Source of the DNA: Alphaproteobacteria bacterium
GTDB taxonomy: Bacteria; Pseudomonadota; Alphaproteobacteria; RF32; CAG-239
Direction of reading: 5' to 3'
Assembly: GCA_045632645.1 (NCBI GenBank)
Contig: JAZQXC010000014.1
Location: 104,637-168,636, forward strand
Length of the DNA: 64,000 nucleotides
How positions within the stretch are numbered: the stretch's first letter is position 1; each line of letters opens with the position of its first letter. Under the pieces are notes generated by a model. It ran no database searches and was not told the origin of the DNA. It worked only from the letters and a program-made list of their open reading frames with translations. Positions 57,731-64,000 of the stretch are shown one piece after another. Made by a program: the position numbers and the translations under genes.

Positions 57731-57755
57731 GTTATAATTATCTTAATAAAAATAG

Positions 57756-57785
57756 CCACCTAGCAAATAGGTGGTAATTTTTATT
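57756..57785 (+). terminator. rho-independent terminator (first element of repeated cassette module)
   Basis: CCACCTA-GCAAA-TAGGTGG followed by TAATTTTTA. Confidence 0.55.
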
Positions 57786-57797
57786 ATAACAAAATTA

Positions 57798-57826
57798 TTG
57801 ACACAAGCTCATTTTAATGATATAAA
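57798..57826 (+). promoter_or_regulatory. sigma-70-like promoter TTGACA-17-(TGA)TATAAA
   Basis: consensus -35 TTGACA at 57798-57803, 17-nt spacer ending in TGA, -10 TATAAA at 57821-57826. Confidence 0.45.
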
Positions 57827-57970
57827 ATCTTTCATGAGTGGGGCAAGCGCTCGGAATGTTCGCCAAAGATTTCATTGCCATAGCATGTTTTATTACATAA
57901 ATTTCTTTTAAGTAGCTTATCAATGCTAATCGAACAGGCGTAAGATGAGTTATTTAGAAAGGAATTCGAT

Positions 57971-59389
57971 ATGCAAGATTATATAGATTTTTTTCGTGAA
58001 GAAGCAAAACGTTTATTAAAATCCCTTAAAAATAACGATAAAGACGCTAAAAAGAGGTGTTTTACCGTTTTTGGTGATAGAGAAGATTTATCTTTAATGA
58101 ATATCCAACACGTTATAGCCAAAGAATATGGTTTTGAAAGCTGGAATGATTTAATTAAACAAGACCCTTTCAAATTAGCTGAAGTTTTAGTATTTGCAAA
58201 AAATAAAACCATCAACACCCCATTTAAAAAGTTTGGTAGTAATAATGTTTCCTCAGCAGAAAGAAGTGATTATAGTGTGCTAAAACAACCTTCTTTAATT
58301 TATGATGAGAATGAAAAAACACTTGTTCAAAAACTTAATCCTCAATCTCCAACTCCTTTCATATCAAAATATATAAATATCACTCAAGCAGATATCTCAG
58401 AGTATGATTTATCAAAACTTAATCCCATTAATACATCCTATTCTAATCTAACTGTTTGGCCTAATAACGCATCAAAAATGCCCAAAGGATTTAACCCTAA
58501 AGAGTTTCTAGAGCAACGTAAAAACCCAGGGCTTGGCATTAAAACTCTTCATAAACTTGGTACAAAAGGGCAAAATCGTGCAGTAGCTATAATAGACTGT
58601 TGGAATCTTTCCGATCATCTAGAATACCATAGCTCTCTAAAAGGATATGAAGAAATTGGTGAAAACTTTTTAAATGGTAGCACCGCCACAGAACTAGTTT
58701 CATCAATAGTAGGGAGAACTTGTGGTATTGCGCCTTTTGCTGATGCATATTACTATGCAGTAGATGACCTTCGTTCAAAAGAATCTCCTAGGGGGTCACA
58801 AATAAATTTTGCTAAAGCAATTAAAAATGTTTGTGAACTTCATAAAAAACTCAAACAAGATGGAAAAAATGGAATAGATATAATTCATATACAACCCGCT
58901 TTAACCTCGAAAGCATTTCAAACAGATGATGGTTATGATGAAACCTTAAACGCAGTAAAAGAAGCAGAGGCCCTAGGCATTTGGTGTAATATATCTCATA
59001 GCTTCAGAGAAATAAAATACTTTAGAGAAGAGCGTGTTTATTGTAAATTCGGTGGCAATTTAGATAACCCAAATGATTATGAGTTAACAGAATATTCTGT
59101 TCTCCATAAAATACCTCATGCTGATAGAGAAAAATTTGAAATGTCACTTTGTTTCCCTGGTGGCGCAAGAACGGTTGCCTCAGAATTAAAAATGAACGCA
59201 TACAATGTTCAATATTGTTCTGGTTCCCTATCAGGTGCTTACGCAACAGGTTTATACCTTTTAGCTAAAAGCGTAAAAGAAAACATAACACCACTAGAGT
59301 TTTTTGAACAAGGATTAAAAACTGGTACCTTCAAAGAAGGCGTCGGCACAATCATTAACCCAGTAGCCCTAATCGAAAGCTTGAAGTAA
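57971..59389 (+). CDS. subtilase (peptidase S8)-fold protein, paralog A; catalytic His apparently substituted
   Basis: IKTLHKLGTKGQNRAVAIIDCW aligns with subtilisin [24 protein letters not shown] (Asp retained); GSTATELVSSIVG..GIAPFADAYYYAV aligns with HGTHVAGTVAAL..GVAPSASLYAVKV with His replaced; SGSLSGAYATG near the Ser221 region; ~150-aa N-terminal extension. Confidence 0.5.
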   Translation: MQDYIDFFREEAKRLLKSLKNNDKDAKKRCFTVFGDREDLSLMNIQHVIAKEYGFESWNDLIKQDPFKLAEVLVFAKNKTINTPFKKFGSNNVSSAERSDYSVLKQPSLIYDENEKTLVQKLNPQSPTPFISKYINITQADISEYDLSKLNPINTSYSNLTVWPNNASKMPKGFNPKEFLEQRKNPGLGIKTLHKLGTKGQNRAVAIIDCWNLSDHLEYHSSLKGYEEIGENFLNGSTATELVSSIVGRTCGIAPFADAYYYAVDDLRSKESPRGSQINFAKAIKNVCELHKKLKQDGKNGIDIIHIQPALTSKAFQTDDGYDETLNAVKEAEALGIWCNISHSFREIKYFREERVYCKFGGNLDNPNDYELTEYSVLHKIPHADREKFEMSLCFPGGARTVASELKMNAYNVQYCSGSLSGAYATGLYLLAKSVKENITPLEFFEQGLKTGTFKEGVGTIINPVALIESLK

Positions 59390-59403
59390 TATATATAAAA
59401 CAA

Positions 59404-59424
59404 CGGGAGGGTATTCCCCTCCCA
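59404..59424 (+). terminator. GC-rich stem-loop GGGAGGG-TATTC-CCCTCCC
   Basis: 7-bp G/C stem in an AT-rich genome, 15 nt after the paralog A stop. Confidence 0.45.
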
Positions 59425-61690: not shown

Positions 61691-63079
61691 ATGACAAAGT
61701 ATATTGAATACTTCCAAGTTGAAGCAAAGTGTCTTTTAAAAGACTTTAAGAAAAATTTCCCCGAAGCCAAATCAAGATGTGAAACATATTTTAGTGGTAG
61801 AGATTCATTGTCTTTAATGAATACTCAACATGTTATTGCCAAAGAATATGGTTTTGAAAGCTGGAATGATTTAATCAAACAAGAACCACACAAACTAGCA
61901 GAGGCACTAATTGTTGCAAAAAACAAAACCTTTAATAGTCCGTTCAAATTATGGCACGGAGGTCGCATAACAACAGGTTACGAAGAAAATAAATACAAAC
62001 TTCATAAACCGGAAGATTATCAATTAAAATATGATGCTAAAAAGAAAGCATTTATAAGTGATAGAAGCGAATATACCTCTTTTGAACATTTAGATGTATC
62101 AGATTATGATTTATCTGGCATAGACCCATTAAAAATACGCTATTCAGAAGATACCAAATGGTCGGAAGACCCAGCCAAATTACCTCTAGGTTTTAATCCA
62201 AAAGAGTTTTTGGAATCTCGCAAAAACCCTGGGCTAGGCATTAAAACTCTTCACAAACTTGGCATAAAAGGACAAGGACGAAATATCGTAATTATTGATA
62301 ACTTTCGCTTGTTTAATCATATAGAATATCAAAATTCTCTAAAAGGTTATGAAGAAATTGGTTTTGACCCCACAAATTATGGCGGTGGAGCTGGTGGTTC
62401 GCTAATATCAGCATTAGTTGGCAAAACTTGTGGCATAGCTCCATCTTCAAATGCTTATTTTTATGCAGTAGATAATAACAACTATACAAGCCAAATAAAT
62501 TATGCAATAGCAATCAAAAAAGTTTGTGAACTTCATAAAAAACTAATTGCAGAAGGTGAAAATGGTATAGATGTTATCTTCACTTTTCGCGATTTAACTA
62601 ATGAAAACTTTTCAAATATAGAAGGTTATGAAGAAACCCTAAACGCTATAAAAGAAGCTGAAGATTTAGGCATTTGGTATAATTGTGCAGGCGTATTAAA
62701 TTCTAAAGAAAACTCAAATATAAGACTTGGTCATATATATTGTAAATTAGATGGCAATGTTGATAATTCATCCGATTACATTCCATTAAGAGCACCTAAT
62801 TCAAAATGGAGATTGATTGATAATTATAAAAATGCTCTATGCTTCCCTTGTGGTGCAAAAACAGTTTCTTTAGATGTAAAAATGGACGAATACGTTTTTG
62901 AGCATTATTCTAATAGATATGCATCAACTTACGCTTCTGGACTTTATTTATTAGCTAAAAGCATAAAAGAAACCATAACACCATATGAGTTCTTTGAGCT
63001 AGGGCTAAAAACTGGTGATTTTATAAAAGGCGTTGGCACAATCATCAATCCAACTCGCCTAATCGAAAGCTTAAAATAA
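61691..63079 (+). CDS. subtilase (peptidase S8)-fold protein, paralog B; catalytic His apparently substituted
   Basis: ~55-65% identical to paralog A, including HVIAKEYGFESWNDLIKQ, NPGLGIKTLHKLG and GVGTIINP..LIESLK; GGAGGSLISALVG in place of the HGTHVAG block. Confidence 0.5.
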   Translation: MTKYIEYFQVEAKCLLKDFKKNFPEAKSRCETYFSGRDSLSLMNTQHVIAKEYGFESWNDLIKQEPHKLAEALIVAKNKTFNSPFKLWHGGRITTGYEENKYKLHKPEDYQLKYDAKKKAFISDRSEYTSFEHLDVSDYDLSGIDPLKIRYSEDTKWSEDPAKLPLGFNPKEFLESRKNPGLGIKTLHKLGIKGQGRNIVIIDNFRLFNHIEYQNSLKGYEEIGFDPTNYGGGAGGSLISALVGKTCGIAPSSNAYFYAVDNNNYTSQINYAIAIKKVCELHKKLIAEGENGIDVIFTFRDLTNENFSNIEGYEETLNAIKEAEDLGIWYNCAGVLNSKENSNIRLGHIYCKLDGNVDNSSDYIPLRAPNSKWRLIDNYKNALCFPCGAKTVSLDVKMDEYVFEHYSNRYASTYASGLYLLAKSIKETITPYEFFELGLKTGDFIKGVGTIINPTRLIESLK

Positions 63080-63092
63080 TTTTATTATAATA

Positions 63093-63112
63093 GGGGAGGG
63101 TTTTCCCTCCCC
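63093..63112 (+). terminator. GC-rich stem-loop GGGGAGGG-TTTT-CCCTCCCC
   Basis: paralogous to the hairpin at 59404, 14 nt after the paralog B stop. Confidence 0.45.
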
Positions 63113-63132
63113 GACCCGATAAAGGAGTAAAA

Positions 63133-63615
63133 ATGAGTAATATAGAAATCAAAATAGCCACCCTAAATGATGTTGAAGAGTTAGGAAAAATGCACTATGC
63201 GAGCTGTATTTTGCATAGCAAGAATTTTAATCAACCTATATTATATACTATTGAAGATATGATAGGTATAACAAAACAGATATTCAATAATCCAAGAACG
63301 GTTTTATTCAAAGCTATTTGCGGTGATGATATTTGTGGATGTTTGTTTTTGTGGATTATTGAGTCTGAAGAAGCAAAAATATGGAACAATGAAGATGAAC
63401 ACATCGGACATATTAGCGAAATATATGTAAAAGAGGAATATCGTCAACAAAAAATAGCTTCCAAAATGATACAATTTGCAGAAGATTATCTCAAACAAAG
63501 AAATATTTATGGGTTAGATTTAGAAGTGTATAAATTTAATAGAGAGGCGTATGAATTATATAAAAAACAAGGATTTGAGGAAATAAAAACATATATGCAT
63601 AAAGAGTTAAAATAA
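63133..63615 (+). CDS. GNAT-family N-acetyltransferase
   Basis: 160 aa; motif A region ISEIYVKEEYRQQKIASKMIQFAE; size and pattern typical of GNAT. Confidence 0.65.
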   Translation: MSNIEIKIATLNDVEELGKMHYASCILHSKNFNQPILYTIEDMIGITKQIFNNPRTVLFKAICGDDICGCLFLWIIESEEAKIWNNEDEHIGHISEIYVKEEYRQQKIASKMIQFAEDYLKQRNIYGLDLEVYKFNREAYELYKKQGFEEIKTYMHKELK

Positions 63616-63880
63616 AAAAAAGAGAAGTTATCTCCTCTTGATACACTTATTATATAGTGTTCAATTAAAAAGTCAAGCAAACTTTTAGACAAAATTTTAA
63701 AAATAATTATTGTCTTAAATAAATTTAAATGAGATAACACAAGAGCAAATTTAATAAGGATACAAAATGATTTATTATATCAAACATCAAATATTTTTAT
63801 TTTCTTAAATTATAAGCCCAAATAATCGGGCAAACATATTTTTATTTAGTGTTTAACCTAATTTAAGAAGGATTTTCTAC

Positions 63881-64000
63881 ATGACTGATATTAAAAAGTC
63901 AGCTCATTCTCATGAGCGACCATTAAGTTTTTTTGCTTATGAAAAACAAAATATAAAAAATATAATTAATTTTGTAAGAGGGATAAAACCCAATACCCAA
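63881..64000 (+). CDS. N-terminus of a second ABC exporter paralog (runs off the window end)
   Basis: MTDIKKSAHSHERPLSFFAYEKQNIKNIINFVRGIKPNTQ parallels MTNAKTSAKPQSFLAFEKERLVKLYNFIKGIKTKDPKK of the exporter at 59455; RBS AAGAAGGA upstream. Confidence 0.5.
   Translation, partial: MTDIKKSAHSHERPLSFFAYEKQNIKNIINFVRGIKPNTQ

Follow-up and report, generated by a model that had tools for sequence, protein, structure and literature searches.

Why are two neighbouring genes for subtilisin-like proteins in an alphaproteobacterium each preceded by the same conserved leader, and what might leader and protein do together? The question is raised by the far end of a 64,000-nt stretch of contig JAZQXC010000014.1 (positions 104,637 to 168,636), referred to here as the window. 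There, a list of open reading frames (ORFs) and the raw letters gave two homologous units, at 57755-59424 and 61475-63112, each composed of a terminator, a promoter, a leader of about 137 nt, a gene for a protein of 472 or 462 aa (ProtA and ProtB, respectively) and a GC hairpin; all parts lie on the + strand unless stated otherwise. Interleaved with the two units are genes for an ATP-binding cassette (ABC) half-transporter and a GNAT acetyltransferase and the start of a second ABC gene. An original prediction, drawn from the DNA letters, had taken this layout for a cassette of protease-like protein, exporter and acetyltransferase, reminiscent of LanP/LanT or microcin loci and under copy-number expansion. 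The analysis reported here points elsewhere. The leader is a structured RNA of a new class, exclusive to a single protein family in the sequences searched, and the members of that family, termed pseudo-subtilases, are predicted to be catalytically dead proteins of the subtilisin fold.

The two units are paralogous, as had been proposed, with ProtA and ProtB 51% identical and the regions upstream of them 86% identical. Of the leader as first described, the identity between copies (about 85%) stands; its length is put here at about 137 nt (about 165 nt in the first description), and its RNA structure had been missed. Leader A occupies 57834-57970 and leader B 61554-61690, and they score 134 and 144 bits, respectively, with the covariance model R1. 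A scan of one genome per species returned 42 loci, numbered in the form L001, all in metagenome-assembled genomes (MAGs) of gut or rumen Alphaproteobacteria. At all 42, the approximately 135 nt before the start codon are 72-90% identical in nucleotide sequence, the proteins encoded there being 34-59% identical to ProtA, and the leader is conserved upstream of all 56 family genes examined. The covariance model gives 80-150 bits on every one of 54 leaders and matches only upstream of family genes; elsewhere, at E ≤0.01, it found nothing in the window or in about 850 kb of related loci, including those of active S8 relatives of the family. A search independent of the protein, in which a DNA pattern of two pairing strands of the leader (helix PK2, described below) was run over 241 million metagenome records, matched 80 loci; 13 are true according to the covariance model, and all 13 directly precede a family gene. 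The other matches, about 67, are due to chance, and two matches of the RNA pattern on viral contigs are likewise chance, both being rejected by the model. Rfam 15 returned only noise, at E up to 10 for the leader alone and up to 1 for 10 kb, and no description of this leader RNA or of the pseudo-subtilase family was found in the literature. The unit of leader RNA and pseudo-subtilase is previously undescribed and is so far confined to uncultured gut or rumen Alphaproteobacteria.

The aligned leaders, numbered so that position 1 corresponds to window position 57831, contain five helices: P1, PK1, PK2, P3 and P4. P1 pairs positions 6-10 with 18-22 (57836-57840 with 57848-57852 in leader A; 61555-61558 with 61568-61571 in leader B). 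Positions 12-16, inside the P1 loop, pair with 45-49 to give PK1 (57842-57846 with 57875-57879; 61561-61565 with 61595-61599). Together, P1 and PK1 make a classical H-type pseudoknot in which loops L1 and L2 are 1 nt each and loop L3 is 22 nt. From within L3, positions 27-32 (UGUYCG) pair with 101-106 (CGRRCA) as PK2 (57857-57862 with 57931-57936; 61576-61581 with 61650-61655), the 3ʹ strand of which is carried on the apical loop of the short helix P4 (95-97 with 107-109; 57925-57927 with 57937-57939 in leader A). P3 is a 21-bp hairpin (71-91 with 114-135; 57901-57921 with 57944-57965 in A and 61620-61640 with 61664-61685 in B), and in its lower 8 bp a conserved anti-Shine-Dalgarno sequence, AUUUCUUU, pairs with the Shine-Dalgarno (SD) stretch AAAGGAAU. 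The SD lies at 57958-57964 (AAAGGAA) in leader A and at 61678-61684 in leader B. Invariant unpaired nucleotides, GG and CGCCAAAG, are found around the junction of the pseudoknot and the loop-loop helix. Transcription would start about 2-3 nt before P1. At L160 (10001-10060), a public gene call, P0058 (482 aa), is 20 codons too long at its start and so takes in the 3ʹ part of the leader; the conserved start codon comes immediately after the SD hairpin.

Covariation supports this structure. The 54 leaders, 48 of them distinct, were aligned to the covariance model and compared with controls in which the 3ʹ partners were slid by 1-3 columns and with 500 shuffles. Standard pairs occupy 94.7% of pair cells in the 48 distinct sequences (37-51% in the slid controls), and changes on both sides of a pair are found at 12 pairs and in 75 cells, compared with 3-9 pairs and 4-30 cells in the slid controls. 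The observed values for pairing and covariation were reached by only 0-2 of the 500 shuffles, and a 43-sequence set gave the same covariation picture as the 48. P1 alternates between GAG/CUC, AGG/CCU and GGG/CCC, its pairs covarying as GC (36) with AU (6) and as AU (34) with GC (14). PK2 is paired in 100% of sequences. Its central pair is C-G in 39, U-A in 5 and U-G in 4, with at least two separate origins of U-A, one in window copy A and L001 and the other in L028-L030. Seven pairs covary in P3. In the divergent leaders L006 and L159, PK1 is swapped for a different pair of complementary segments in a shifted register.

What the structure does to the start of translation is suggested by minimum free energy folds, in which all six SD bases are paired in 43 of the 48 leaders and the SD hairpin has a mean ΔG of -17.7 kcal/mol. 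The leader shows two of the features generically expected of a riboswitch: a conserved structure in the presumed 5ʹ untranslated region (UTR) with covariation and, in the predicted folds, an expression platform over the SD. Other kinds of leader were considered and set aside. The only ORF in leader A, which starts at the AUGAG of P1, is not conserved, and in leader B it stops at codon 3. The leader therefore encodes neither a leader peptide nor a precursor peptide; the initial impression that no precursor peptide is obvious is supported. Binding of CsrA at GGA in the loop and in the SD was rejected, the loop reading CGAACA or CGGGCA in many members, and an RNA thermometer was judged unlikely because the 21-bp stem is so stable and the 5ʹ domain so elaborate. 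Pairing of the 5ʹ-end UAUG with ACAUA before P3 and an alternative ACAU/AUGU pairing are not conserved.

The proteins encoded downstream, ProtA (57971-59389) and ProtB (61691-63079), belong to a family without annotation, as expected. Neither Pfam (E up to 10) nor NCBIfam matched ProtA, ProtB, their halves or their N-terminal module, and the gathering score of PF00082 was not reached. Among 5.8 billion proteins, phmmer found about 80 close relatives, none with a Pfam domain and the few named ones listed as 'hypothetical protein' from Alphaproteobacteria MAGs, along with 22 remoter PF00082 proteins that align with about 70% of the query at E 1e-44 to 1e-12. The link of ProtA and ProtB to PF00082 is made only via such intermediate sequences, and a family profile found no chain in the PDB. 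An AlphaFold model built on 30 family members has a predicted local distance difference test score (pLDDT) of 89.8 and a predicted TM-score of 0.90, and its top Foldseek matches in the PDB are PagA, intracellular subtilisin and PatG (probability 1.0, target-normalised TM-score about 0.6). Homology to PF00082 proteins and the structural matches of this model both uphold the subtilisin fold that had been read from the sequence.

The catalytic triad is another matter. In an alignment of 103 sequences, comprising 81 family members and the 22 PF00082 relatives, His is kept in 0/81 members, Ser in 7/81 and Asp in 61/81, compared with 22/22 for all three in the active relatives. ProtA reads Asp/Thr/Ser, with Thr for His, and ProtB reads Asp/Ala/Arg, having lost both His and Ser. 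The retained Asp and missing His that had been described for the two copies are thus confirmed, and no intact His was found in any of the 81 members; what had not been foreseen is that Ser, too, is mostly lost across the family. About 50 columns are invariant in 30 family sequences, which clearly places the family under selection, as one of pseudoenzymes rather than decaying genes. ProtA and ProtB contain no hydrophobic segment and no signal peptide and are therefore probably cytoplasmic. The active S8 subfamily (P0083-P0104, PF00082) shares with them the Asp block and the pre-catalytic pattern DLSxxD...TxWP...KNPGLGIxxLH. Unlike the pseudo-subtilases, its members keep D/H/S in 22/22 cases, lack both the N-terminal module and the leader RNA, and are encoded among housekeeping genes, a context that is uninformative. 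Searches of plasmid and phage collections with ProtA (tblastn) gave no match.

The N-terminus of the family is a helical module and not a subtilase prodomain. Residues 1-80 form a predicted five-helix module with the motif LSLMNxQHVIAKEYGFxSW, which is absent from the active S8 relatives and which, modelled alone, folds confidently (predicted pLDDT 88). The module has 903 representative relatives, in which it is fused to Ank, LRR or SAM-like domains. A PDB sequence search with the module gave nothing usable, and the matches of a word-index search with its profile were mostly gene fragments. Because the module is elsewhere attached to binding scaffolds, its presence here would fit a dead protease domain that serves as a binding domain.

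The reading of the unit that is favoured here, tentatively and with somewhat less than an even chance of being right, joins a riboswitch-like translational switch to a pseudo-protease that binds rather than cleaves. The leader would keep translation of the pseudo-subtilase off by default, together with that of any co-transcribed GNAT or ABC gene, and would respond to an effector. A small molecule is the likeliest kind, and the invariant unpaired GG and CGCCAAAG near the junction of the pseudoknot and the loop-loop helix would be the site of its recognition. The pseudo-subtilase would then act as a receptor, sequestering or adaptor protein, comparable to CspC and CspA. A more specific version is conceivable but rather improbable: the leader would be a new riboswitch class, and its ligand or a related compound would be received or sequestered in the cytoplasm by the pseudo-subtilase and modified and expelled by the GNAT and ABC proteins. 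Candidates for such a compound are a gut-derived toxic metabolite and a peptide-like antibiotic. Several findings weigh against a sensing switch. At 21 bp and about -18 to -22 kcal/mol, the SD hairpin is far stabler than typical riboswitch expression platforms, and a conserved alternative (anti-anti-SD) pairing was looked for in the leaders and not found. Of the five helices, PK1 is the least secure: it is 97% paired but has only one clearly compensatory column. The neighbouring GNAT and ABC genes are facultative, their functional link to the unit being statistical only, and exclusive ties to a single gene family are typical of protein-mediated autoregulation no less than of riboswitches. Finally, all hosts are uncultured MAGs.

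Autoregulation is the main rival of the riboswitch reading, though itself rather doubtful. The pseudo-subtilase, perhaps via its N-terminal module, would attach to its own mRNA at the pseudoknot and loop-loop complex and so repress translation without any small molecule, as ribosomal-protein leaders exemplify for autoregulatory mRNA binding. The RNA occurs with this one gene family in 56/56 cases, the leader accompanies the family-specific N-terminal module and both are absent at the loci of active S8 relatives, and the very stable SD hairpin forms without a ligand, all of which favours such a mechanism. However, the N-terminal module is elsewhere fused to Ank or LRR protein-binding domains, and conserved unpaired nucleotides with a double pseudoknot are also typical of small-molecule aptamers. 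Next comes the unlikely case of a leader that senses nothing and sets mRNA stability or processing along with a fixed low level of translation, possibly with an RNase III cut in the 21-bp stem that frees the SD. In favour of this, RNase III can act on a near-perfect hairpin of such a length (about 21 bp), the leaders revealed no alternative pairing that could serve a switch, and a 5ʹ structure beginning about 2-3 nt after the presumed start could shield the mRNA from 5ʹ-end-dependent decay. Yet the invariant unpaired GG and CGCCAAAG and the covarying long-range loop-loop helix exceed the needs of stability or processing, and conservation of the leader across proteins that are 34-59% identical argues for specific recognition.

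The recently duplicated LanP/LanT- or microcin-type cassette, in which the protease-like protein handles a precursor peptide exported by the ABC transporter, is very improbable and largely refuted. Its attractions are that the top Foldseek matches include the cyanobactin proteases PagA and PatG, that ABC exporters and GNAT are frequent neighbours and that the island varies between close relatives. Nevertheless, His is absent from 81/81 members and Ser from 74/81, the proteins lack a signal peptide, no small ORF is conserved in the leader, the 51%-identical paralogs have their own orthologues each, and more than half of the loci are without an ABC gene within 8 kb (a few of these are cut by a contig end). 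Neither a membrane-fusion protein nor a modification enzyme nor a precursor gene was found among the window ORFs from 51 to 64 kb or in annotated homologous loci; the lack of a membrane-fusion protein and of a C39 domain, remarked on from the outset, is confirmed in Pfam matches and annotated loci. Maturation and export of a peptide thus find no active protease, precursor ORF or modification enzyme to rest on. Least probable of all is a role of the conserved block at the DNA level, as an operator or as a recombination or cassette boundary site. The whole unit including the upstream terminator does behave as a module, and between the window and L001 the units share 96-97% identity, compared with 83% for the flanks. 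Against this, the compensatory changes preserve pairs on the + strand only: UG occurs in 31, 30 and 40 sequences at single pairs, and such pairs would be C-A mismatches on the other strand. This abundance of G-U pairs means that the structure exists only in the + strand transcript. The block, moreover, lies between the invariant -35 box and the start codon, SD included.

Both parts of the unit have counterparts among known systems. CspC and CspA of Clostridioides difficile are subtilisin-like pseudoproteases that act as germinant receptors (PMC7200643, PMC12880746). They share with the pseudo-subtilases the subtilisin fold and the loss of triad residues, and are thought to bind or signal rather than cleave (PMC7200643, 10.1101/461657, PMC12880746); in both cases the organisms are gut inhabitants. 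The family described here differs in several respects. Its profile finds no PDB chain, so no sequence relationship to any solved S8 structure, those of Csp proteins included, is detectable, and its proteins appear to be cytoplasmic, in non-sporulating Alphaproteobacteria with no spore-germination context. They also carry the N-terminal helical module and a dedicated leader RNA, and in the window locus no partner active protease such as CspB is nearby.

The leader itself resembles riboswitches of the H-type pseudoknot kind in being a 5ʹ-UTR element with such a pseudoknot, with invariant unpaired nucleotides and with an SD sequestered by pairing. SAM-II and preQ1-II/III are translational riboswitches built on H-type pseudoknots. 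Like the yjdF riboswitch, which is tied to a single gene family, the leader is associated with one gene family of unassigned function. The yjdF riboswitch is described as activating translation on ligand binding (PMC12641257). The leader is distinguished from known riboswitches by having no sequence or covariance-model similarity to any Rfam 15 family, and its SD is located in a separate 21-bp hairpin that is joined to the aptamer-like domain only by the 6-bp loop-loop helix. As to LanP/LanT and microcin loci, the likeness lies in a subtilase-fold gene adjoining an ABC exporter and in the presence of a GNAT, of which MccE is the example in microcin C loci; in contrast, the window locus is without an active protease, C39 domain, precursor or modification enzymes, and its ABC and GNAT genes are facultative. 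The unit combines known kinds, an orphan riboswitch-like leader and a bacterial pseudoprotease; this RNA and this family are new.

With its double pseudoknot, SD platform and strict gene link, the leader lengthens the short list of riboswitch-like elements without a known ligand by one well-supported, structured orphan RNA, and the proteins make up a so far unannotated family of bacterial pseudo-subtilases that lies outside the Csp germination system. Being only about 137 nt long and sharply bounded, the leader makes the binding of a ligand or protein directly testable in vitro despite the lack of cultured hosts. Knowing the effector would also give a function to the pseudo-protease and to a widespread N-terminal module with some 900 representative relatives. 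If the more specific version of the reading proves true, a riboswitch, a pseudo-subtilase receptor and GNAT and ABC proteins would make up a new RNA-plus-pseudoenzyme module for sensing and detoxification in uncultured gut Alphaproteobacteria.

Is the pair of units a recent duplication? Copy-number expansion had been suggested, but the two copies are only 51% identical and each has closer orthologues elsewhere (ProtA is 97% identical to the L001 protein and ProtB 81% identical to the L007 protein), which argues against recent tandem duplication. The similarity of the two window leaders instead reflects family-wide constraint. Eleven other MAGs have two family genes each, on different contigs; as a rule, one of the two is accompanied by GNAT and ABC genes and the other stands alone. 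The duplication is ancient and the units are old paralogs. Nor is the cassette with its ABC exporter fixed, as had been supposed: the closest relative, L001, has its two pseudo-subtilase units side by side and lacks the genes for the ABC transporter, GNAT, PHP-domain protein and zeta-like kinase. An ABC gene of this type is present within 8 kb in 19/42 loci, a few of the others being cut short by a contig end, and a GNAT gene adjoins in at least 17/42. The invariant core thus consists of promoter, leader, pseudo-subtilase and 3ʹ hairpin. The units in the window (57733-59390 and 61461-63078) are 96-97% identical to those of L001 (MAG JAZQZH010000052), and the flank with ligA and infC (48068-55831) is only 83% identical. 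This difference points to a recent exchange or gene conversion of the units across diverged lineages, or else to an assembly that is chimeric.

Each unit opens with homologous terminator hairpins, in agreement with the first description. The one before unit A, which ends the zeta-toxin-like gene (56837-57730; PF06414 at 3e-46), is an intrinsic terminator at 57755-57785, identified by a terminator scan and by sequence, with the hairpin GCCACCTAGCAAATAGGTGGT (57755-57775) followed by a T-run; in L001, the counterpart hairpin ends infC. Its homologue before unit B (61475-61506), visible in the sequence and in alignment with 57755-57785, consists of AACCATCTAC-AAA-GTAGGTGGTT (61475-61497) and a T-run. 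The promoters that follow also have the predicted TTGACA and 17-nt spacing in both copies. Promoter A (57799-57827) has TTGACA at 57799-57804 and TATAAA after 17 nt, with TG two bases upstream of the -10, and promoter B (61517-61545) has TTGACA at 61517-61522 and TAAAAC after 17 nt. The -10 elements did not pass a strict TATAAT scan. TTGAC is present in 43/43 leaders that include this region (44 alignment rows, one cut by a contig end), at a fixed distance in all 43, and reads TTGACA in all but a few. The promoter of the unit is of the sigma-70 type.

The GC hairpins noted after the two stop codons are both present, at 59404-59424 after ProtA (CGGGAGGG-TATTC-CCCTCCCA) and at 63093-63112 after ProtB (GGGGAGGG-TTTT-CCCTCCCC), neither of them with a T-run on the + strand; the second has the SD of the GNAT gene directly next to it. 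A post-stop hairpin of the type GGGAG(R)G...C(Y)CTCCC is found in most homologous loci, followed by a T-run where the pseudo-subtilase gene stands alone and without one where a GNAT or ABC gene comes next. The missing T-run suggests read-through into the downstream gene in the window. The hairpin core is kept across most loci despite strong divergence of the proteins, and its 5ʹ arm is SD-like and its 3ʹ arm anti-SD-like.

The claim that each unit ends in an ABC exporter is borne out for the first, ABC-A, which is complete, whereas only 39 codons of the second, ABC-B, lie within the window. ABC-A (59455-61395, 646 aa) is an ABCB/MsbA/CydC-like half-transporter, as judged by Pfam and PDB searches, with PF00005 at 6e-29 and intact ATPase motifs (Walker A at residue 431, LSGGQ at 535 and Walker B at 555). 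Its NCBIfam matches to MsbA, CydC and LssB cover residues 58-620; all are far below curated cut-offs (e.g., 197 bits compared with 630), and no characterised equivalog with a known cargo emerged. Only PF00005 and related P-loop models matched, PF00664 and a C39 domain not being found, in keeping with the exporter without C39 first described. By these matches, ABC-A is a type IV (ABCB/MsbA-type) half-transporter, with the nucleotide-binding domain fused to an N-terminal transmembrane domain. A hairpin after it, AAAGGCTCTAG-ATTTTC-CTAGAGCCTTT (61400-61427), is a likely terminator. The GNAT gene reported after ProtB is present at 63133-63615 (160 aa; PF00583 at 7e-16, 59 bits compared with a cut-off of 20.7) and is of a generic kind, with weak, sub-threshold NCBIfam matches and no specific equivalog. 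ABC-B begins 266 nt after it (63882-64000, MTDIKKSAHSHERPL...); its N-terminus is identical to that of the L005 exporter, which is 54% identical to ABC-A over the full length.

The interval before ABC-B has features of its own. A 13-codon ORF lies at 63767-63808 (MIYYIKHQIFLFS), with a good SD, AAGGA, at 63756-63760; between it and ABC-B come the hairpin GCCCAAATAATCGGGC (63816-63831) and a tract rich in T. The same small ORF precedes the orthologous exporter in L005, L002 and L011 (MIYYIKHQIFLIS, MIHYIKHQIFLIS), with a covarying hairpin GCCT..AGGC, there being three distinct versions only. The arrangement looks like a leader-peptide attenuator, for which bmrB-bmrCD provides a parallel. Upstream of it, a block of about 100 nt (63612-63715) is conserved before ABC genes in two clades. 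On the minus strand it contains a near-consensus promoter, TTGACT, 16 nt and TATAAT (63676-63649), which in L014 is a perfect TTGACA, 17 nt and TATAAT. The promoter faces a hairpin and T-run (63639-63612) and would yield an RNA of 30-40 nt antisense to the end of the GNAT region.

On the other side of the units, a PHP-domain gene (55887-56711, minus strand) and the zeta-toxin-like gene, which encodes a P-loop kinase, are inserted between infC and the first unit. Weak, sub-gathering Rfam matches to 'Phe_leader' and STnc370 at 55832-55920 correspond to a bidirectional terminator hairpin between infC and the PHP gene. No obvious epsilon antitoxin accompanies the zeta-like kinase. In L005 and L007, too, the family gene has a zeta-like gene before it (79-80% identity).

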